This document shows positions 1,105 through 32,271 of a DNA stretch of 40,488 nucleotides, piece by piece; positions within the stretch are counted from its first letter, which is position 1; each line of letters begins with the position of its first letter. The translations under genes and the position numbers were made by a program. The stretch lies in the NCBI GenBank assembly GCA_035526605.1, contig DATLCA010000340.1:1-40488 (forward strand), written 5' to 3'. This DNA comes from Pyrinomonadaceae bacterium. GTDB taxonomy: Bacteria > Acidobacteriota > Blastocatellia > Pyrinomonadales > Pyrinomonadaceae. The notes below the pieces were generated by a model. That model searched no databases, was not told where the DNA came from, and was given only the letters and a program-made list of their open reading frames with translations.

Positions 1105-2697
1105 CTACCCCAGAGCGGCGGGAGTTCTGAGCGCCGTCCTCCGCGCAAATAGATTCACAAAAGCCAGACTTAGCGCCAGGACAAACAGAAGCCTTAGAAC
1201 CGATGGAAATATCGTCGCGTAAAAGGATTCAAAAGAAACGATCGTCATCAACGAGAAGTATGCGACCTTTTTCCATAGGGCGGGGTTCGGTGTGTCGATC
1301 AACGCGGCATAAATAAATCGAAGATATATTCCCAGAATGAGCATTCCCAGGGGCACGCCGATCGGGCCGAAATTGCGTAGCAGATCGCCGAACGGCGAGA
1401 TCGCGAACGAGTTTTCCCCGAAGTTGAAATAAAGGTCGCTGTACGCGCGCGGATCGGATGTCGGCGGCTTTTCCTTCCAGATGAACCGCGGAATAAAGGA
1501 CGTATAAAGATCGTTCAGAATGTTGTTCTCGAGCCCGTAGCTCGCTTCGTAAGGAGCAAGCTGCTCATAGTTGGCGACGACGACCGCCACCGAGCTCAGA
1601 TTTTCAACTCGGGCCGCGAGGGCCGAAGCGGACTGCTCGACGATCAGCATCGGGTCGGCGACCGAGAGGTATTCGACCGTGACCAGAACTTGGCCAAAAT
1701 AATCTCCGGCGCCGATGCGTTCCTCCGATCCCTTTACATTCCGGAAAGTGGTTCCGTAGATGACCCCTATGATAACGGCGAGCAGGCCGACCACGGCGAA
1801 AAGAGCCGCAACGCGGAGCTTTAATTTGCGCCCGGAGGCGACGAACGCGTAGGCGATGGGAAGGAGACCCAAAATTAAGCTGCCACGGGATCCCACCACC
1901 GCCATCCTCAACGGGAGGAAAACGATCAGGATCCCAATGATCAGGTAGAACACGAGGTTGCGCTGCTTGGCGCTGAAAACGGCGAGCCAAAGTAAAACCG
2001 TGCCTTCGGCAAGCACCGACATGATGAAAAACAGGAGGCCGTCAAAAATGTTGACCTCGATGTTTCGCTGGAAGCCCAATAGGCCCTGAAGGAACCCGAG
2101 TATGTTGAAGGCCACTCCGAAGATGAGCAGCAAAACTCCCGGCAGCCAAATCTGCTCCGGCTTCCAATTCCATTTCGGGAGCCTCGGCTCGACAACATCG
2201 GAGAGCCGTTTTCCGACCGGCAGGAAAAACCCGAAAGTAAGACTGAGAAACCCGACCGCGATGTAAATCAGGGTCAGCGGAAGGTTGTATTGCGGGTCGT
2301 CGATGAACGACATGAAGAACGGATCGACCCAACCAAACGCGATTATCACTCCCCCGAGAACGAAAGCCGGAAAAACGTACGACCAGGCCGCGTAAACGAG
2401 CGGGTGAAAAAGATCAAACTTTCCGATGTAGAGAAGATAGACGCTCGGCGCAAGGACGCAAGCTCCGGCCAGAAAGGTCCACGGCAGCAAATAGAAACCG
2501 TGCATCTCACTGCTGAGATCGTTGTCGATCCAGATAAAGCTCGCGACCGCGACAATAACCACCGCCCAAATAATCGCGATGGGAACGATGAAGTTACCGC
2601 GCAAACGGCTCGGCTGTGGAATTTTATACGAGAATTGCGTTGCCATTATTTTGTCGGCCGAGACCCTACCCCTGTGTTCGCTTTCACCTATGAGCAC
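1105..2697 (-). CDS. Polytopic membrane protein, putative O-antigen/EPS repeat-unit polymerase (Wzy-like)
   Basis: 530-aa ORF with more than 10 predicted TM helices and no soluble domain. It is the only reverse-strand gene in the cluster. An alternative start exists at the ATG at 2646. Confidence 0.5.
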   Translation of the reverse strand: MLIGESEHRGRVSADKIMATQFSYKIPQPSRLRGNFIVPIAIIWAVVIVAVASFIWIDNDLSSEMHGFYLLPWTFLAGACVLAPSVYLLYIGKFDLFHPLVYAAWSYVFPAFVLGGVIIAFGWVDPFFMSFIDDPQYNLPLTLIYIAVGFLSLTFGFFLPVGKRLSDVVEPRLPKWNWKPEQIWLPGVLLLIFGVAFNILGFLQGLLGFQRNIEVNIFDGLLFFIMSVLAEGTVLLWLAVFSAKQRNLVFYLIIGILIVFLPLRMAVVGSRGSLILGLLPIAYAFVASGRKLKLRVAALFAVVGLLAVIIGVIYGTTFRNVKGSEERIGAGDYFGQVLVTVEYLSVADPMLIVEQSASALAARVENLSSVAVVVANYEQLAPYEASYGLENNILNDLYTSFIPRFIWKEKPPTSDPRAYSDLYFNFGENSFAISPFGDLLRNFGPIGVPLGMLILGIYLRFIYAALIDTPNPALWKKVAYFSLMTIVSFESFYATIFPSVLRLLFVLALSLAFVNLFARRTALRTPAALG

Positions 2698-11573: not shown

Positions 11574-12610
11574 TCGGGGTGGGGCTAACCACATCGACCT
11601 GTCTGTTCGCGGCTGCTTTTCTGGCCTCATCATTCGGCGTGGCGATTTTTATCCGCTGGAGCCGGCACCGAGGGCTTTTCGACATCCCGAACGAGCGGAG
11701 CTCGCATTCGACACCCACGCCTCGAGGCGGAGGGCTCGTAGTCGTTCTGGTGAGTCTAGCCGGCTATCTGATAGTTGGGTTCGCCCTCGGCATGCCTGTC
11801 TCATGGGGATACGTGGGTGGGTCTCTGCTCGTCGCGTTTGTCAGCTGGCTAGACGATCTGTACTCGCTGCCGTTTTGGAGCCGGCTCATCTTTCATGTTA
11901 TCGCGGCCGGAATCTTGATGTGCGACCTCGGCTATTGGACCGGTCTATATATTCCGTTCGTTTCCGGTGAAGCCGACGTAGGAAATACGGCCGGCGTCCT
12001 TTTAACTTTTGCGTGGGTTGTCTGGCTGTTGAATGCTTACAACTTCATGGATGGCATTGATGGCATTGCGGCGCTCCAGGCCGTGATCACCTGTATCGCG
12101 TGGGCGGTATTGGCGTTGATTCTGGATATACCGTCGATATTCTTGTTCTCCGGAATTCTCGCAAGCGCGTCCGCAGGATTTTTAGTTCACAATTGGCAGC
12201 CGGCGAAAGTCTTCATGGGTGATGTGGGGAGCGCCTTTCTCGGTTTCACGCTCGCGGCGATGCCGCTGCTTGCCCGGCCAGGTCGGGGGGCGAACGCCTC
12301 GATACTTCCAGCCTTGGGACTTCTGCTGGTGTGGTTTTTTATTTTTGACACGGTCTTCACTTTCTTCCGGAGACTGATCGCCGGACAGCGATTCTGGGAA
12401 GCTCATCGCCAGCATATTTATCAGAAGCTTGTGATTTCGGGCTGGGAGCACTCGCGTGTGGCACTTCTTTATGGGCTCATGTCGGCCGCGGCGTCCGCGA
12501 TCGCGCTGACGGCTTTTAGATTTTCGGGAATTTACCGGTACTTGGCCTTTTTATCCGTATTCGTTCTGACATCAGCGCTTGTGTACCTGGGAGCCCGAAA
12601 TAAACGTTGA
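11570..12610 (+). CDS. Undecaprenyl-phosphate HexNAc-1-phosphate transferase (MraY/WecA/WbpL family), the initiating transferase
   Basis: ATGA overlap with the upstream gene. Motifs LDDLYSL, NAYNFMDGIDGIA and VFMGDVGSAFLGF. Multiple TM helices. Confidence 0.85.
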   Translation: MIGVGLTTSTCLFAAAFLASSFGVAIFIRWSRHRGLFDIPNERSSHSTPTPRGGGLVVVLVSLAGYLIVGFALGMPVSWGYVGGSLLVAFVSWLDDLYSLPFWSRLIFHVIAAGILMCDLGYWTGLYIPFVSGEADVGNTAGVLLTFAWVVWLLNAYNFMDGIDGIAALQAVITCIAWAVLALILDIPSIFLFSGILASASAGFLVHNWQPAKVFMGDVGSAFLGFTLAAMPLLARPGRGANASILPALGLLLVWFFIFDTVFTFFRRLIAGQRFWEAHRQHIYQKLVISGWEHSRVALLYGLMSAAASAIALTAFRFSGIYRYLAFLSVFVLTSALVYLGARNKR

Positions 12611-12625
12611 CCTAAATAATTAAAA

Positions 12626-13522
12626 GTGTTAGCTTTGCAGGACACTAAGTTTGGAAGTGCGGTAGCAGACTGGTTGATGTCAGAGAAAAGTTTGGAGCAC
12701 ACACGCTCATTCGATAATGAAATCGTTTTCGAATCGTACGGGGTGCGGGTGAGGATCCAGACGACCAGCCCGGAGCTACTAGAAGACGCGGAGCGGACTG
12801 CGAGAAAAGCATTGCTCGATCGTCTTGAGATCCTTGAAAGTAAAGAGGCAGAACACACGTTCCGAATTTCGGCGGACGAGAACGAAACCATGTACCTATT
12901 TTTGAATGGTGAACAGGTTTCGTACGACAAATTCCACGCTCGGTTTTTTAAGTTCTTTAATGGGATTTTGCGCATAGTCGTCGCGGAACACGCTCGCGAT
13001 ACGGTCTTTATTCATGCCGGTGTCGTCGGGTGGCGAGGTAAAGCCATCGTCATTCCGGCAAATAGCTTTGAAGGGAAGACCACCCTCGTCGCTGAACTGG
13101 TAAGAAACGGTGCTGAGTATTATTCGGACGAGTACGCGGTTCTGGACCGACACGGGATGGTTCACCCATTCCCACGGGATCTATCCGTTCGGGACGACGA
13201 ATTCCGGGAGACCGACGTTCCCGTAGAGGCGTTGGGCGGAAAAACCGGCACCACCGCGCTACCGATCGGGGCGGTCCTGCTGACCCGCTACGAAGAAAAT
13301 GCGGGGTGGAATCCGGAACGGTTGACGGTCGGGCAAGGAATAATGGAGATCATTCCCCATACTATTCCCCGGATCTTTAACACAAAGTTTTCATTAAAAG
13401 TGTTGAACACAGCGGTAAGTGATGCAATAATACTGAAAAGCCCGCGAGGCGACGCGGGACAACTTGCAATTAAACTTTTGTCTTTTTTTGACAATTTTAT
13501 ATACTTGGCTAAAATTACCTAA
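12626..13522 (+). CDS. HPr-kinase-C-terminal-like P-loop kinase (HprK-related)
   Basis: FIHAGVVGWRGKAIVIPANSFEGKTTLVAELV resembles the HprK C-domain core plus Walker-A-like loop. The start is uncertain (GTG at 12626 or ATG at 12677), and neither has a clear SD. Confidence 0.6.
   Translation: MLALQDTKFGSAVADWLMSEKSLEHTRSFDNEIVFESYGVRVRIQTTSPELLEDAERTARKALLDRLEILESKEAEHTFRISADENETMYLFLNGEQVSYDKFHARFFKFFNGILRIVVAEHARDTVFIHAGVVGWRGKAIVIPANSFEGKTTLVAELVRNGAEYYSDEYAVLDRHGMVHPFPRDLSVRDDEFRETDVPVEALGGKTGTTALPIGAVLLTRYEENAGWNPERLTVGQGIMEIIPHTIPRIFNTKFSLKVLNTAVSDAIILKSPRGDAGQLAIKLLSFFDNFIYLAKIT
13488..13515 (+). promoter_or_regulatory. Sigma-70-like promoter inside the 3' end of the kinase gene, facing the PqqD-fusion gene
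   Basis: TTGACA (13488-13493), a 16-nt spacer, then TAAAAT (13510-13515). Followed by GGAGGAG at 13548-13554 and ATG at 13558. Confidence 0.4.
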
Positions 13523-13557
13523 CCCTATTACGGTTAGTTACTTGTTTGGAGGAGAAA

Positions 13558-14046
13558 ATGAACAACTCGCAGCGCCCCATTGCACGAAAAAGTGGACTCG
13601 TAGTCCAGGAGGTACCGGACGAAGTTCTGGTATACGATCTGGAAAGCAATAAAGCCCACTGTCTTAACCAGTCGGCCGCGATGATTTGGAAATCATGCGA
13701 CGGCAACAATTCGGTTTCGGAAATTGCGAAACTTGTGGAAAGCCAGGCCGGCGGCAAGGTTACCGAGGACTTCGTGTGGCTTGCGATCGACCAGCTTAGT
13801 GAGAACAATCTGCTTGAAAAGCCGGTGGCTTCCAGCTTTGAAGGAACATCGCGTCGCGAAGTCATCAAGAAGATCGGTCTTGCTTCAGTGGTAGCCGTTC
13901 CGGTTATCGCATCCCTCGTCGCTCCGCAAAGTGCTTTGGCTGCGGCGTCGTGTACATGCGTGAACCCGCCGTCGTGCAGCAACACTCCGAATTTGGGTTG
14001 CCCGAGCACGACTCGTTGCAACAGTTCTGGTTTGTGCGCTCCCTAA
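13558..14046 (+). CDS. PqqD-like (RRE) domain protein fused to an internal Tat-type signal-like segment and a Cys-rich C-terminal tail
   Basis: ATG at 13558 follows a strong SD (the track start at 13546 is TTG). Residues ~13-88 look PqqD-like (LVVQEVPDEVLVYDLESNKAHCLNQSAAMIW...). Then come TSRREVIKK, an 18-aa hydrophobic stretch and ALA/AA. The tail is CTCVNPPSCSNTPNLGCPSTTRCNSSGLCAP. Confidence 0.7.
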   Translation: MNNSQRPIARKSGLVVQEVPDEVLVYDLESNKAHCLNQSAAMIWKSCDGNNSVSEIAKLVESQAGGKVTEDFVWLAIDQLSENNLLEKPVASSFEGTSRREVIKKIGLASVVAVPVIASLVAPQSALAAASCTCVNPPSCSNTPNLGCPSTTRCNSSGLCAP

Positions 14047-14072
14047 ATAGCGACGCTCAATATAAGATCAAA

Positions 14073-14103
14073 GGCAGCAGATCATCCGGTCTGCTGCCTT
14101 TTT
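14073..14103 (+). terminator. Rho-independent terminator
   Basis: 9-bp perfect stem GGCAGCAGA / TCTGCTGCC (14073-14081 and 14090-14098), an 8-nt loop, then TTTTT (14099-14103). Confidence 0.7.
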
Positions 14104-14107
14104 GCGC

Positions 14108-14980
14108 ATGAGTCATCCACAAGAGATCACGGACGAATACAGGTTCTACCTTCTTAGAAAGCGATTAGCCGAGAATCTCATTCTGGGTGCGTTTCGCGGG
14201 TTTCGCCGGGAAGGCATCGAACCCATTTTAATAAAGGGCTGGGCGGCGGATCGGAACTATCCGGCGTCAAGGCCGCGTTTTTTCGGCGACATAGACCTTG
14301 CCGTCTCCGCCGCCGACTTCGACGCGGCGAGGAAACTAATAAGCTCCGGATCAACTATCGGCGGTGTTGACCTACATCGCGAATTAGAACATTTAGATAC
14401 ACTCGGTTGGGAAAGCCTGATCTCCAATTCCCAGGTCGTTAAGTTGGAGGGTGAGGACATTCGTATTCTTTGCGCCGAGGACCACCTCCGGGTTATGTGC
14501 GTCCACTGGCTTACCGATGGCGGTGAAAGACGCGAGCGGCTCTGGGATATATTCTACGCGGTACAAAATCGGCCGGCTGAATTCGACTGGTCAAAGTGTG
14601 TGGATGTGGTCAGTGAGACACGGCGGCAGTGGATCATTACGTCAATTGGGATCGCGCATAAATATTTAGACCTGGACCTTTCCGGTATACCCTTCGCGGA
14701 GGAGGCTCGAGACCTCCCGGTCTGGCTAACCCGATGCCTGGAGCGGGAATGGGCGAGAAACCTCGAGATCCGCCCTCTACATTCACAACTAAAATATCCT
14801 CTCGGTCTGTTGCGTCAGGTACGGAAGCGCATTCCGCCGAATCCAATCCAGGCCACAATCAATTGCGAGGGGGATTTTCGAAAACGGACGCGGGTCGGTT
14901 ATCAGATCCGGGATATGTTCAAGCGTATACTTCCAGGGATAAAGCGCATATCGAACACGATAGTGGAAAAACCTTCGTGA
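14108..14980 (+). CDS. Uncharacterised nucleotidyltransferase family protein (NTP_transf_5 / PF14907-like)
   Basis: ILIKGWAADRNYPASRPRFFGDIDLAVSAADFDAARKLI matches the family pattern (LKG...Y...R...DIDLLV). ATG at 14108 (the track TTG at 14102 lies in the terminator T-tract). No obvious SD. Confidence 0.6.
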   Translation: MSHPQEITDEYRFYLLRKRLAENLILGAFRGFRREGIEPILIKGWAADRNYPASRPRFFGDIDLAVSAADFDAARKLISSGSTIGGVDLHRELEHLDTLGWESLISNSQVVKLEGEDIRILCAEDHLRVMCVHWLTDGGERRERLWDIFYAVQNRPAEFDWSKCVDVVSETRRQWIITSIGIAHKYLDLDLSGIPFAEEARDLPVWLTRCLEREWARNLEIRPLHSQLKYPLGLLRQVRKRIPPNPIQATINCEGDFRKRTRVGYQIRDMFKRILPGIKRISNTIVEKPS

Positions 14981-15663
14981 AGAAAACAAACCGGTCCCGG
15001 AACGTCTTGGCTCTCGAGTCTGCTGTTGCCGGCGGAAGTGTCGCGCTGATCCGCGAGGAAAAGAAATTCGTCCTCAATCGTGAGGGCCCCGAGTGTTCAC
15101 GTGCCGAGAACCTGTTGTCGATAATCGCCGGGATTCTCAAGGAAGCCGAGCTCACCCTCCGAGATATAAACCTGATCGCGGTTTCGACCGGCCCTGGTAG
15201 TTACTCTGGCATTCGAATCGGACTTTCGACCGCGATGGGTCTTGGCGACGCCCTCGGCGTACGGTGCGTCGGGGTTTCCGTTCTTGACGCGATGGCCTGG
15301 GCCGCCCGCCTCGAGGGTTCTTTTATTGTCGCCGTCCCGGTTGGAAAAAATGACGTGGCATGGCAGATTTTTAGGACCGGCGGCCAGGGAGCTCCGCAGG
15401 GCGACTCGGACCCGGAGCTGTTGTCGAGCGCTTCTTTTATCGATCGGTTGAAGGGCCTTCCCGAGGTCAGCCTTTTCGGCCAGAGAGATTTGCTGGATCG
15501 CATCGGCGATCAAATTCCATTAACCACGCCTCGGGTGGACGCGGGACGCGGAATAGCAGAAATGGTGGGCCGCGAAGCTATGCGGCAGGGCGAAACCGAT
15601 AGTCCCTTGAGGCCGATCTATCTTCGCAACCGGGACTCAGATGTTCGTTCTGCGCGCTTCTAA
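14977..15663 (+). CDS. tsaB: tRNA threonylcarbamoyladenosine (t6A) biosynthesis protein TsaB
   Basis: VLALESAVAGGSVAL and the STGPGSYSGIRIGLSTAMGL motif. GTG at 14977 overlaps the upstream TGA (GTGA). TTG at 15007 is an alternative start. The rest of track ORF 14734.. is overlap junk. Confidence 0.8.
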   Translation: MKKTNRSRNVLALESAVAGGSVALIREEKKFVLNREGPECSRAENLLSIIAGILKEAELTLRDINLIAVSTGPGSYSGIRIGLSTAMGLGDALGVRCVGVSVLDAMAWAARLEGSFIVAVPVGKNDVAWQIFRTGGQGAPQGDSDPELLSSASFIDRLKGLPEVSLFGQRDLLDRIGDQIPLTTPRVDAGRGIAEMVGREAMRQGETDSPLRPIYLRNRDSDVRSARF

Positions 15664-16116: not shown

Positions 16117-16251
16117 CTTAAAGCGCCAAATTACAAAGGTGCTTGAAAAGTGTGCCGGAATTGGTTTAACATCAGGCTTGAACCCCCGATAGGTACATTG
16201 GAACTGGATACCTGGGTTCAAAAAAATTGAAAAGTGAGGAACAACAACGCT

Positions 16252-16482
16252 ATGGACATGTCAACCCCTGATGTTGTGAGAGACGAGCTGATAAAGAGCA
16301 ATTCGGCGTTCCGCGATCTGGTTCATCAACATCAAAGCTATGAAAATCGGTTGAGCGAATTGGCCCACCTTACATTCCCCAGCGACGACGAGCAAGTCGA
16401 AGAGGTAACTCTCAAGAAAAAGAAATTACAAATAAAGGACGAGATCTATGCAATGATGCATGATTACTCGGTCTCGCACTAA
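16252..16482 (+). CDS. DUF465 (YdcH-like) small protein
   Basis: FRDLVHQHQSYENRLSEL ... LKKKKLQIKDEI is typical of DUF465. ATG at 16252 is preceded by GAGGA at 16236-16240. Confidence 0.7.
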   Translation: MDMSTPDVVRDELIKSNSAFRDLVHQHQSYENRLSELAHLTFPSDDEQVEEVTLKKKKLQIKDEIYAMMHDYSVSH

Positions 16483-29931: not shown

Positions 29932-32271
29932 TCACGTCCTAACTTTTGAAAGCAGAAAAATCCCTAGCATGGAAAAACCAATTAGGGGCGCCCAGACCGC
30001 AAATCCCGGAGGCAGGCTGCCGTTGAGACCGAACTGTTCGAAAGCGCTGGTGAGTCCCATAAACAACAACCAAAGTCCAACCGCGTAACCAACCGTAATA
30101 ACCTTCCCCTTCCTGCTCAGACTTAGTGCGAAGGGCGCCGTAAACAGTGCGATGACGAATGGGAGGAACAAGGTCGTGTACTTTTTCTCCAAAGCGATCC
30201 CTAAAGCCCGCTTCTCTACCTCGGCCTCGCTGTTCTCAAGTTGAGCGACGGTTTCCGAAACATTTAGGTGGCTGGGCTTCTTCCGCAGTTCAGCAAAAGG
30301 ATTCGCCGGCTCCACCACTTCCCCGTCAGGCGCCTCCGTCGTTGTAATTCCCTGCTCGGACAACACGCTTTTCTCAACCATGCCGTCGAACACAATCGCA
30401 CCATCGTGCCAATTAGCGAATTTCGAGCGGTATAGGGTTTGCAAATTCCCGCTATCCGCAAATTCATAAATTACCAAGTCTCTGACGGCGCAGACGGCTA
30501 CGCAACGTACCGCATACTGTTTGTCGTTATCAGACGCAACTACATTACTATTCCCAGTCGTGTTCCGATCCGTGTCAAACTGGAACGAGTAGATCCGCTT
30601 GTCGTTGGCAACCCAGAATCTTCCCGGCCGTTTCGCCGGATTTCCCCGGTTGCGGATCTGAGTCCTGAACTCGTCTTGATGTTGATTCGCCGCCGGGGCG
30701 ACCCGCTCCTGTATCAGCCAGTTTAGCGATCCGATAAGGATCATCAGCAACAGGCACGGAAGAAGCAACCGGTACACGCTCTGGCCGGCGGACGTCCACG
30801 TGACGATCTCATTTTGGCGCGACTTCAATACGTACGTCGTTAGGACCGCGACCATGGCCGCGGACGGCGCCAGCTGGATGTAAATGAATGGAACAAGATA
30901 AAAGAGATATCTGACGAGCAACGCTATCCCGCCATCAAACGTACCCGCAAATCTCCATAGTTCGAAGGCCGTAAAAATAATGAAGACCGCGGCGAGGAAG
31001 CAGAGCGTAAGAAAGTAAAACTTGATCAGGCTCACGACGAGATCGAAATCCCTGATTCCGGTCGTGACTCCGGTAAACGGATTCGGAACTCGGCGGCGAA
31101 AAGGTCGAAGATCCACCCACGACAAGGTTTCCCTCACCCGCGGCACTACCCGATTCCCGGCAGAAAGCCGGGCCGAAAAGTTGAACCAGAGAATTACAAA
31201 GAAACTCAAAATTATAGGGAAAAGGCTTCCCTCGAAAACCGAGATCTTTCCGGTACGGGCTAGTTGCTCCCCCAAAAAGGCAAGCAGGTAATACACGATC
31301 AGACAGCCGAGGGCGACGATCACTCCGAATCCTTTTCCGCGTCGACTGAATCGAAGTATCAACGCCGTGCCCAGTAAACAGAAAATAAGCGGCGTGACCG
31401 ATAGCACGATACGGCGTTGCCGGAGGATCTGGGCCTCGGTCCGTTCGGCCCCTTCCCTGCCGCTCGCATATTCCGAGAGCTCTGATAAACCGAGTTCTTC
31501 GGGAGCCAGCTCTGCGCTGCTAAGCTTCTGGATGAGGTCACCGCGCCTGGTCTGGATCGCAAATCGGATGTTGCCTATATTCTCCGATACAAATTTGTGC
31601 TGGCCCGGCGAGTTGTTGAAAGTTGTCTTGACCGCATTCTCGAGAACAAGCTCGGACAGCTCTTCCGACGAATCGATTCGTCCCTTACGCGACGTTATCA
31701 AGTTAACAGTCCCAGTTTTCTCATCCTCGTTGTGCACGAAGATGTTCTTCCACTGCCCAGCCGCAATGTCGCCGTCCCGCACATAAATCGTGTAACCCGC
31801 AACCTCGGTGTTAAAAACTCCGGGTTCGATCGGAGATTCAAGCTTGTAGATCGCGGTTTGGATCGCGACTTGGCGAACGATGCGGGCGGCGATCGGTACG
31901 CCGTACAAATTAATTATGAAAGCAAATATCGATAGAAGGATCCCGATAAACAGAATCGGTATCGTGATCTGGAGATTACCGACCCCGGACGCCCGAATGG
32001 CGACCAGCTCGCTATCGGTCTGCATTTTTGAAAGCCCGATGATCACCCCGACAAGGACGGCCATCGGGCACGTAAACGCGATCACGTTCGGAATCAGCGC
32101 TAGGGTAAGCTGAGAAACGAGAACGGTGGGAATGTTTGCGCTAAAGAAGATGTCGGCGAAACGAGCCGCCTGCTGGACAAAAAGAATTACGCTTAAAAGA
32201 AGCCACGAGAAAACAAAGTAAGGCAGTATCGCCCCGATAAGATACCGTGAAATCGTCAGGCTCAAACGCAT
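29932..32271 (-). CDS. Fused LptF-LptG-like LPS export permease (two tandem YjgP/YjgQ modules)
   Basis: 779 aa. Two successive modules each have 3 TM helices, a large periplasmic insert, then 3 TM helices. The first starts ISRYLIGAILPYF and the second starts around LIKFYFLTLCFLAAVFII. Confidence 0.75.
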   Translation of the reverse strand: MRLSLTISRYLIGAILPYFVFSWLLLSVILFVQQAARFADIFFSANIPTVLVSQLTLALIPNVIAFTCPMAVLVGVIIGLSKMQTDSELVAIRASGVGNLQITIPILFIGILLSIFAFIINLYGVPIAARIVRQVAIQTAIYKLESPIEPGVFNTEVAGYTIYVRDGDIAAGQWKNIFVHNEDEKTGTVNLITSRKGRIDSSEELSELVLENAVKTTFNNSPGQHKFVSENIGNIRFAIQTRRGDLIQKLSSAELAPEELGLSELSEYASGREGAERTEAQILRQRRIVLSVTPLIFCLLGTALILRFSRRGKGFGVIVALGCLIVYYLLAFLGEQLARTGKISVFEGSLFPIILSFFVILWFNFSARLSAGNRVVPRVRETLSWVDLRPFRRRVPNPFTGVTTGIRDFDLVVSLIKFYFLTLCFLAAVFIIFTAFELWRFAGTFDGGIALLVRYLFYLVPFIYIQLAPSAAMVAVLTTYVLKSRQNEIVTWTSAGQSVYRLLLPCLLLMILIGSLNWLIQERVAPAANQHQDEFRTQIRNRGNPAKRPGRFWVANDKRIYSFQFDTDRNTTGNSNVVASDNDKQYAVRCVAVCAVRDLVIYEFADSGNLQTLYRSKFANWHDGAIVFDGMVEKSVLSEQGITTTEAPDGEVVEPANPFAELRKKPSHLNVSETVAQLENSEAEVEKRALGIALEKKYTTLFLPFVIALFTAPFALSLSRKGKVITVGYAVGLWLLFMGLTSAFEQFGLNGSLPPGFAVWAPLIGFSMLGIFLLSKVRT

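Follow-up and report, generated by a model that had tools for sequence, protein, structure and literature searches.

A conserved three-gene module of Blastocatellia encodes a PqqD-like protein with an internal twin-arginine-type signal and a hypervariable Cys-rich tail, a candidate precursor for peptide maturation

The kinases PadeK and PsmK place a phosphate on the C-terminal Ser of linear lasso peptide precursors, and in the case of pseudomycoidin PsmN adds one or two hexoses to the Ser phosphate made by PsmK (PMC6993621, PMC8498205). PsmN has been described as a putative uncharacterised nucleoside triphosphate (NTP) transferase (PMC6993621), and may be comparable to the enzymes of PF14907. 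Here we analysed a module with comparable components in a stretch of 40,488 nucleotides of contig DATLCA010000340.1 from a Pyrinomonadaceae bacterium, hereafter the window. The module consists of three consecutive ORFs (open reading frames) on the plus strand (12626-13522, 13546-14046 and 14102-14980; likely true starts ATG 12677, ATG 13558 and ATG 14108) that encode a kinase-like protein, a PqqD-fusion protein of 162 amino acids (aa; longest ORF 166 aa) and an NTP_transf_5 nucleotidyltransferase (NTase). An initial annotation of the window had already described three consecutive same-strand genes, and all three peptide strings that it quoted are present; the lasso precedent that it named for a kinase acting together with an NTase is also real. 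Below we give the domain architecture, folds, conservation pattern, gene linkage and expression signals of the module, all of them established by computation.

Like the paeninodin and pseudomycoidin systems, the module places a kinase of the HprK family beside a nucleotidyltransferase, which in the window belongs to PF14907, and includes a recognition element (RRE) of the type that serves peptides that are made on the ribosome and modified after translation (RiPPs). It differs from the lasso phospho-systems in that cyclase, B2 protease and ABC exporter are all missing and that its RRE, unlike the separate lasso B1 protein, is fused to the putative substrate. This substrate has 162 aa with a twin-arginine signal and a six-Cys tail and is without a C-terminal Ser. 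In addition, the module is syntenic and part of the core genome, whereas lasso sets are sporadic clusters. No B2 protease of lasso systems was found among the scanned ORFs of the window or in the Pfam tables of L082-L089, and a second type of locus, described below, carries a Peptidase_C25 instead.

In the PqqD-fusion protein, PF05402 (PqqD) covers residues 26-67 of the 166-aa ORF, equivalent to residues 22-63 from ATG 13558, with 30.4 bits against a gathering score of 23.4. The AlphaFold model (predicted local distance difference test score, pLDDT, 77; alignment of 139 sequences) has three strands (14-19, 22-27, 32-36) and three helices (38-46, 53-64, 70-82) in the RRE (residues 1 to ~90). 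Its top fold matches in the PDB are lasso B1 proteins, namely TbiB1 (5v1u/5v1v) and 6jx3, with TMt 0.76-0.78 and a root-mean-square deviation of 2.2-2.5 Å. The score above the gathering threshold and the three-strand, three-helix winged-helix fold thus place the protein among the RRE/PqqD domains, as the initial annotation had it. The best-kept motifs of the domain are NKAHCLN on modelled strand 3 and EDFVWLAI on modelled helix 3; strand 3 and helix 3 build the leader-binding groove of known RREs. We also observed that among 139 diverse homologues C47 (in SCDG) is invariant and C35 (in AHCLN) nearly so, and to our knowledge such a conserved Cys pair is not something that typical PqqD or B1 proteins are known for.

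The RRE is followed by a segment that the initial annotation had missed. Residues 98-128 read SRREVIKK-IGLASVVAVPVIASLVAP-QSALA and are made up of a twin-arginine motif, an h-region of moderate hydrophobicity containing a helix-breaking Pro, and an AxA. R99, R100, P115 and P123 are invariant among the 139 diverse members, the P-x7-P spacing and the AxA are conserved, and S119 within the hydrophobic stretch is nearly invariant. Twin-arginine translocation (Tat) signals share the S-R-R-x-hydrophobic-hydrophobic-K motif, the moderately hydrophobic h-region and the AxA, and the segment carries the S/T-R-R-x-F-L-K-type motif as SRREVIK. However, it stays below the trusted cutoff of TIGR01409 (13.4 against 16.7 bits; formate_TAT matches weakly in 89 of 139 members), and its motif starts at residue 98 rather than at the N-terminus. 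Internal Tat signals exist in actinobacterial Rieske proteins. The redox enzyme maturation proteins (REMPs) TorD, DmsD and NapD are cytoplasmic partners that bind a Tat signal until maturation ends. Compared with these, the window's signal is internal with a domain of 97 residues ahead of it, its putative binder is an RRE in cis, and its cargo is ~30 residues long.

The AlphaFold2 model assigns a beta-strand to residues 117-121 (IASLV), with locally higher confidence (pLDDT ~79). Since DSSP needs a pairing partner and the sole other multi-residue strands of the model lie in the RRE, we infer pairing with the RRE sheet. On this basis the signal segment may dock in cis on its own RRE, much as leader peptides bind to B1 proteins.

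The tail (residues 129-162) has the framework CxC-x5-C-x7-C-x5-C-x5-C, which can also be written CxC-C-CP-CN-C. It is rich in C, T, N, A, S, P and G, with 18% Cys, and nearly without charged or aromatic residues. Exactly six tail Cys are found in 76 of the 80 species whose loci we compared, while the loops between them vary freely, so that the Cys-rich tail proposed for a conservation check by the initial annotation is indeed kept as a six-Cys framework. The residue preceding the first tail Cys is nearly always S, T or N. At the C-terminus the window protein ends in CAP, and across the 80 species the end is mostly CAP, CA, CV or CRP.

The three parts of the protein evolve very differently. Mean pairwise identity is 0.70 in the RRE and 0.745 in the signal-like segment, against 0.39 at the non-Cys positions of the tail, and the corresponding dN/dS values are ~0.03, ~0.05 and ~0.37, which are rough because dS is saturated. 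This contrast between a conserved leader and a variable core is typical of precursor families. RiPP precursors with large leaders of the NHLP and Nif11 type and enzyme-precursor fusions such as borosins likewise combine a long, conserved and folded N-terminal region with a short hypervariable core and have several precursor paralogues per locus. Unlike in those families, the leader in the window is the RRE itself and bears a putative export signal.

Expression signals also single out the middle gene. A consensus match to a sigma-70-like promoter falls within the last part of the kinase gene, with ~70 nt between it and the PqqD-fusion ATG, and matches of at least 10/12 are found upstream in 44 of 80 related loci, often at the same -70 position. 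A strong ribosome-binding site, GGAGGAG, stands 6 nt upstream of ATG 13558. A terminator-like 14-bp hairpin with a T tract begins 24 nt past the PqqD-fusion stop, its T tract ending 3 nt before the NTase ATG; an equivalent hairpin and T tract is present in at least 63 of the 80 loci, with different stem sequences and the pairing kept. Because of its own promoter and conserved terminator, the PqqD-fusion gene looks like a separate, strongly expressed unit, and the NTase gene looks as if it were reached only by read-through. Such a layout would be familiar from the precursor genes of peptide clusters. The proposal of the initial annotation that the PqqD-like protein carries its own substrate therefore gains from the hypervariable Cys tail, the conserved leader, the tandem copies described below, and the dedicated promoter and terminator.

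Based on a scan of one genome per GTDB species, relatives of the PqqD-fusion protein occur in 246 genomes, of which we analysed the best 80 loci. These 80 all belong to the Acidobacteriota, class Blastocatellia (Pyrinomonadaceae and 'Chloracidobacterium'), bar one contig label. The odd contig, L062 (JBDTZT010000214.1), shows typical Blastocatellia synteny in a metagenome-assembled genome labelled Actinomycetota, and is probably mis-binned. The conserved order is GT1-WecA-kinase-PqqD-fusion-NTase-TsaB-RimI-BamB-like-SSB. In loci with enough flank, the kinase-like gene is upstream in 75 of 76 and the NTase downstream in 66 of 67, and the trio recurs in a second, unrelated context; the three genes do travel together, which is the co-occurrence that the initial annotation had proposed to check. 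With a median identity to the window of 66% (kinase 45%, NTase 50%, TsaB 37%), the PqqD-fusion gene is the best-conserved one of its neighbourhood, on par with SSB. Two to three tandem precursor copies with differing tails stand before a single NTase in L017, L044, L052, L060 and L074, and copies are also present in L020, L033 and L037, where the contigs are too short for a clear layout.

This synteny across ~80 Blastocatellia species loci also bears on the proposed origin of the module. The initial annotation had suggested an accessory insertion on the basis of AT-richer stretches. The stretches exist, with a GC content of 0.47 in 12501-13000 and 0.52-0.53 in 13001-15000 against ~0.55 in the surroundings, but the AT-rich patches fall on the intergenic spacer and on the promoter and 5' untranslated region and so give no evidence of insertion. 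Conserved synteny in the 80 species loci refutes the accessory island.

We considered a 2-3 kb insert between precursor and NTase as a shared tailoring enzyme and rejected it, as it proved to be a single large unrelated ORF. This ORF of 640-890 aa, ending ...PLGTHDDQVDAVSLG..., lies directly after the precursor terminator in four related genomes (Table 1). It looks like a gene of mobile or phage type, and its position may be a hot spot for insertions.

The family reaches well beyond these genomes. When 1.84 billion cluster representatives were searched exhaustively with the profile, there were 6906 matches at E<=1e-3, 4306 at E<=1e-10 and 662 at E<=1e-30; the 662 are clusters at 50% identity. 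Nearly all of the best 150 matches cover the profile through the signal segment and beyond. In a set of 266 diverse members, an RR followed by a hydrophobic stretch and a small-x-small motif is found in 255. Tails are hypervariable, from 23 to 184 aa with a median of 42. The number of Cys is even in 249 of 255 (140 have six, 39 have eight, and the highest count is 24), and even Cys parity is a mark of fully disulfide-paired extracytoplasmic domains, which argues for export and against thioether or metal-cluster readings. A lanthipeptide-like route, in which a kinase, elimination and thioether formation would act on a Ser/Thr/Cys-rich tail, is disfavoured by the even parity, by the knottin frameworks described next and by the absence of a lyase or cyclase.

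A large sub-family of relatives, 104 of the 255, has the framework C-C-CC-C-C (C-x6-C-x6-CC-x3-C-x4-C) known from knottins, or inhibitor cystine knots, such as conotoxins of the O-superfamily, spider toxins and UPF0506. One such tail gave weak Pfam matches to UPF0506 (23.0 against 23.2 bits), omega-atracotoxin and the conotoxin O-superfamily. The tail of the window protein differs: it does not have the knottin framework, is of bacterial origin and is nearly free of charged residues. We also observed two relatives, P0274 and P0369, in which a knottin-like module is followed in series by a window-type CxC...CPSTxNCN...CAP module, and at the sequence level these two-module tails suggest modular tail shuffling. 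In a cluster look-up of knottin-type members, the only name returned was Pyrinomonadaceae.

The NTase matches PF14907 with 69 bits against a gathering score of 31.2, in agreement with the initial annotation, and its sequence carries a GDIDL (DxD) metal-binding motif. Its stop and the GTG start of tsaB share GTGA at 14977-14980, and rimI begins right behind the tsaB stop, which couples the NTase translationally to the housekeeping t6A and RimI genes.

The kinase-like protein was called an HPr-kinase-C-domain-like protein by the initial annotation, and this call holds in part. No Pfam model matches at E<=1, PF07475 (Hpr_kinase_C) included. Among NCBIfam models TIGR04352 (HprK_rel_A) reaches 52.6 bits against a cutoff of 200, with HprK_rel_B and ScmC as further sub-threshold matches. 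The kinase profile gave only chance matches to ribosomal protein P0/L10 among PDB sequences, and we therefore used a fold search. With the AlphaFold model (pLDDT 90; alignment of 35 homologues), Foldseek returned PEP carboxykinase at E 3e-6 and HprK/P (1kkl, 2qmh) at E 2e-4, with TMt 0.5-0.6. S130, G133, K134 and T135 of the Walker-A GK[ST] motif and the acidic pair D151/E152 are invariant in the 35 homologues. Because the profile matches are sub-threshold and the support comes from the predicted fold, the kinase call is right at the level of the HprK/P-PEPCK superfamily only. The N-terminal domain is less conserved than the P-loop half (identity 0.49 and 0.69). In addition, many kinase homologues carry the precomputed Pfam tag PF27840, for which local Pfam gives no match.

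HprK-like P-loop proteins paired with PqqD-like proteins are also found in the HPr-rel-A system (TIGR04352/TIGR04353) and in SynChlorMet (ScmC/ScmD). The models of these two systems, themselves uncharacterised, are the best NCBIfam matches for both window proteins. Membership in HPr-rel-A, a name that the initial annotation had brought up, does not hold, as both equivalog cutoffs are missed widely (kinase 52.6 against 200, PqqD partner 17.7 against 35). The SynChlorMet cutoffs are missed as well (ScmC 12.2 against 125, ScmD 21.8 against 100), and the ORFs scanned in the window include no radical SAM or SPASM partners. The PqqD models of HPr-rel-A and SynChlorMet are short, with 74 and 84 positions, and therefore leave no room for a signal and a Cys-rich tail. 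The system in the window is distantly related to both kinase/PqqD pairs.

The second context, found with knottin-type members, has the order Wzy_C, tetratricopeptide-repeat (TPR) protein, 206-aa protein, second TPR protein, kinase-like, PqqD-fusion, NTP_transf_5 and Peptidase_C25, with Poly_export, Wzz and large surface proteins nearby. Here the kinase is 50% identical to that of the window over the P-loop half only, its N-terminal domain being unrelated, and the NTase is 35% identical to the window NTase. Among type-2 loci (80 metagenomic loci) the NTase follows in 24 of 38 and C25 is present in 13 of 22; the kinase-like gene is not adjacent in L124, L127, L130, L146 and L164, among others counted below. 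Since the NTase is more often adjacent than the kinase, precursor and NTase form the tighter pair. A Peptidase_C25 of the gingipain family, ~1030-1600 aa long, regularly follows the PqqD-fusion/NTase pair in this second locus type (Table 1), and could be a processing protease or merely part of the surface-protein and exopolysaccharide locus. Envelope-polysaccharide genes border both contexts, and this proximity may or may not be functional. Solitary copies were also observed, in L106 (8001-8480) between accD-like and cobO-like genes and in L140 (8001-8480) beside Kelch/DUF4214 and trypsin-TPR proteins.

We consider the chances roughly balanced that the product of the middle gene is a precursor of ribosomal origin whose leader holds an RRE in cis, and which would be tailored in the cytoplasm, exported, cleaved and folded by disulfides into a small peptide. 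This proposal draws on sequence, predicted structures and analogy with characterised systems. The precursor would be made in excess from its own promoter and terminator, and in the cytoplasm the RRE might dock the PVIASLVAP segment, both neighbouring enzymes, or all of these. The HprK-fold kinase would then phosphorylate a Ser or Thr of the precursor, and the PF14907 enzyme would extend the phosphate with a sugar or a nucleotide-derived group, as PsmK and PsmN act on pseudomycoidin; both steps are proposed by analogy with the lasso kinase/NTase pair. The RR signal may carry the C-terminal tail over the inner membrane, with a signal peptidase cutting after the AxA (A126-L-A128), and the tail of ~32-34 residues would form three disulfides as it folds, either in the periplasm or extracellularly. 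The initial annotation had pictured modification of a substrate peptide on the PqqD-like protein, which is supported in part; the twin-arginine segment between RRE and tail now points to an exported peptide. We rate the system as a candidate for RRE-guided peptide maturation with a new architecture made up of a cis RRE, an internal Tat-type signal and a disulfide-rich core.

Several findings weigh against this proposal. Lasso kinases need a C-terminal Ser, which is absent in the PqqD-fusion tail, and no Ser or Thr of the tail is invariant (CPNLANCN replaces CPSTTNCN in some species). The tail is modelled at low confidence (pLDDT 55-64). The Tat model score is sub-cutoff, and the signal is internal, behind a folded domain of 97 residues. 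The module belongs to the conserved core genome and its NTase is coupled to tsaB, unlike most RiPP clusters. In addition, the kinase is adjacent in only 11 of 45 type-2 loci, and a few copies of the PqqD-fusion gene are solitary among housekeeping genes with no enzyme nearby. Judging from these gene neighbourhoods, the kinase is probably not universally required in cis, being either dispensable or supplied in trans.

A more specific form of the proposal, which we hold to be unlikely, would make the RRE a built-in 'proofreading' chaperone of the Tat type: it would bind its own RR signal as a beta-strand and hold the precursor in the cytoplasm until the HprK-like kinase and the PF14907 enzyme have added a phospho-sugar or phospho-nucleotide, after which Tat export and cleavage by signal peptidase would set free a modified, disulfide-knotted mini-peptide, a 'bacterial knottin'.

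It is also conceivable, though in our view unlikely, that the tail is exported while the kinase and NTase modify the leader (for example Ser119 or the RRE) and so control its export, or that their target is a glycan or lipid intermediate of the envelope which the adjacent polysaccharide genes produce. Such a role would fit the near-invariance of S119 in a protein whose tail has no invariant Ser or Thr, the many type-2 loci that lack the kinase, the orphan copies, and the translational coupling between the NTase and the housekeeping gene tsaB. Polysaccharide genes adjoin both locus types (Glycos_transf_4, Wzy_C, Poly_export, Wzz), but in the first type this adjacency may be inherited synteny only. 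On the other hand, the sole characterised pair of HprK-type kinase and NTase acts on the peptide core. The N-terminal domain of the kinase diverges as the tails do (identity 0.49, and no similarity between locus types), and this parallel fits recognition of a variable substrate.

The PqqD-fusion protein might instead stay uncleaved in the inner membrane as a bitopic protein, its RRE-like domain on the cytoplasmic side joined by a signal-anchor to a small periplasmic Cys knob. Serving as a sensor or scaffold, it would couple an envelope or redox cue to the two enzymes, for example in regulating polysaccharide synthesis. We regard this as quite unlikely. Conservation of the hydrophobic segment (0.745 identity, dN/dS 0.05) far exceeds that of ordinary signal peptides, an N-in/C-out topology agrees with the positive-inside rule, and the module lies in the core genome beside envelope genes. 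However, a conserved small-x-small follows the helix-breaking Pro at the expected signal peptidase I site, and the tails are hypervariable in length and framework, some of them composite, unlike a sensor domain. Tandem multi-copy arrays exist, and a strong promoter and a terminator of its own suggest that the gene is highly expressed.

Proteins loaded with a cofactor are typically exported by Tat, and the CxC motif, the 18% Cys and the lack of aromatic residues would suit a metallothionein-like tail that binds metal in the cytoplasm and is exported folded by Tat. We think this very improbable, since even Cys parity (249 of 255) and C-C-CC-C-C frameworks of the knottin type point to disulfides, and metal binding leaves the RRE, kinase and NTase without a role.

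An ordinary lasso tailoring set with cyclase and protease elsewhere in the genome, which the initial annotation had named as the reading opposed to its own, has the kinase and NTase families of paeninodin- and pseudomycoidin-type clusters and the closeness of the RRE fold to lasso B1 on its side, but is scarcely credible given that no cyclase or B2 protease is encoded among the scanned window ORFs or in the Pfam-annotated flanks of L082-L089, and that an RRE fused to a six-Cys tail behind a signal peptide, without a C-terminal Ser, is not the architecture of a lasso precursor.

The Pfam scan of the window beyond the trio covered 30 more ORFs between 147 and 36584 of the 40.5 kb and turned up polysaccharide/LPS and housekeeping genes only. 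These ORFs encode neither a lasso cyclase nor a transglutaminase-like protease, YcaO, LanC or SPASM enzyme, and no tailoring radical-SAM enzyme, the sole radical-SAM protein being MiaB/RimO-like; the absence of class-defining RiPP enzymes noted in the initial annotation is thus borne out for the scanned ORFs. The precomputed Pfam tables of the related loci L082-L089 likewise hold no Asn-synthetase-like cyclase and no B2 protease. PADLOC gives no match for anti-phage defence, and a search of 12000-15500 for a structured RNA, riboswitch or small RNA found no Rfam match at E<=1. The coordinates of the module and of the features mentioned for related loci are collected in Table 1.

Table 1. Positions of the module's genes and signals in the window, and of two kinds of neighbouring gene in related loci
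Feature	Sequence	Position	Strand	Remarks
HprK/PEPCK-fold P-loop protein (kinase-like)	Window	12626..13522	+	Longest ORF from GTG 12626; gene-caller start ATG 12677 = 281 aa
Sigma-70-like promoter	Window	13488..13515	+	TTGACA-16 nt-TAAAAT consensus match, 11/12
PqqD-fusion residues 1-97: RRE (PqqD-like) and short linker	Window	13558..13848	+	PF05402, AlphaFold2, fold match
PqqD-fusion residues 98-128: internal Tat-type signal-like segment	Window	13849..13941	+	SRREVIKK, IGLASVVAVPVIASLVAP, QSALA (AxA)
PqqD-fusion residues 129-162 and stop codon: Cys-rich tail	Window	13942..14046	+	AASCTCVNPPSCSNTPNLGCPSTTRCNSSGLCAP (6 Cys); putative exported core peptide
Intrinsic-terminator-like hairpin and T tract	Window	14070..14105	+	AAAGGCAGCAGA...TCTGCTGCCTTT, -23.7 kcal/mol
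NTP_transf_5 (PF14907) nucleotidyltransferase-fold protein	Window	14102..14980	+	Likely start ATG 14108; stop overlaps tsaB GTG
Insert ORF	L015	6808-9387		
Insert ORF	L022	7178-9097		
Insert ORF	L027	6874-8934		
Insert ORF	L024	6906-9566		
Peptidase_C25	L082	9855-12911		
Peptidase_C25	L084	9989-13102		
Peptidase_C25	L086	10834-13953		
Peptidase_C25	L087	1-1821 and 3217-7977		

Upstream of the module lies a polysaccharide or lipopolysaccharide-type locus with an SIS/cytidylyltransferase protein, PfkB, GT9, an RmlD-like protein, Polysacc_synt_2, a UDP-GlcNAc 2-epimerase, two GT1 enzymes and a WecA-like Glycos_transf_4. A 530-aa ORF (1105-2697, minus strand) with no Pfam match at E<=0.001 adjoins these polysaccharide genes. 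Downstream are tsaB, rimI, a DUF465-sized ORF, and genes for a BamB-like propeller protein, ssb, accA and dnaE, followed by a MiaB/RimO-like gene, parAB, metK, an AdoHcy hydrolase gene, lptFG, recO and hslVU. The DUF465-sized ORF has 82 aa and lies after rimI at 16234-16482, where L083, L088 and L089 have a DUF465 protein of 76 aa in the same place. A 779-aa ORF (29932-32271, minus strand) has two LptF_LptG matches and appears to be a fused LptF-LptG permease.

In the literature searched we found neither a fusion of an RRE to a precursor nor a RiPP of this kind with a Tat signal. Searches that combined PqqD with twin-arginine, knottin or Acidobacteria, and searches for PF14907 and HprK-related kinases, returned no description of this architecture. 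No model of NCBIfam 20.0 reaches its cutoff for the PqqD-fusion protein, and the PGAP name of one homologue is 'PqqD family peptide modification chaperone'.

In conclusion, RREs have so far been seen either as enzyme parts or as separate chaperones, in both cases reading a leader peptide. An RRE fused to its substrate would represent a new logic of guiding peptide modification, all the more so together with a Tat-type signal, and would link RiPP biosynthesis to protein export. The module also offers a tractable three-gene system for studying the roles of PF14907 proteins and 'HprK-related' kinases, which are annotated widely without a known substrate, and the combination of an RRE, an RR motif and a PVxxSxxAP segment provides a handle for genome mining. 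The Blastocatellia are an abundant and poorly cultured group of soil bacteria, in which this family is conserved while its payload is hypervariable and often knottin-like, a pattern expected of molecules that act in competition, in signalling or in interactions at surfaces. The module would define a new class if both its chemistry and its self-chaperoning were borne out. If so, a new and fast-diversifying class of ribosomal natural products would reside in the core genome of a very abundant soil lineage, and this self-chaperoned class might be linked to the glycan machinery of the cell envelope.

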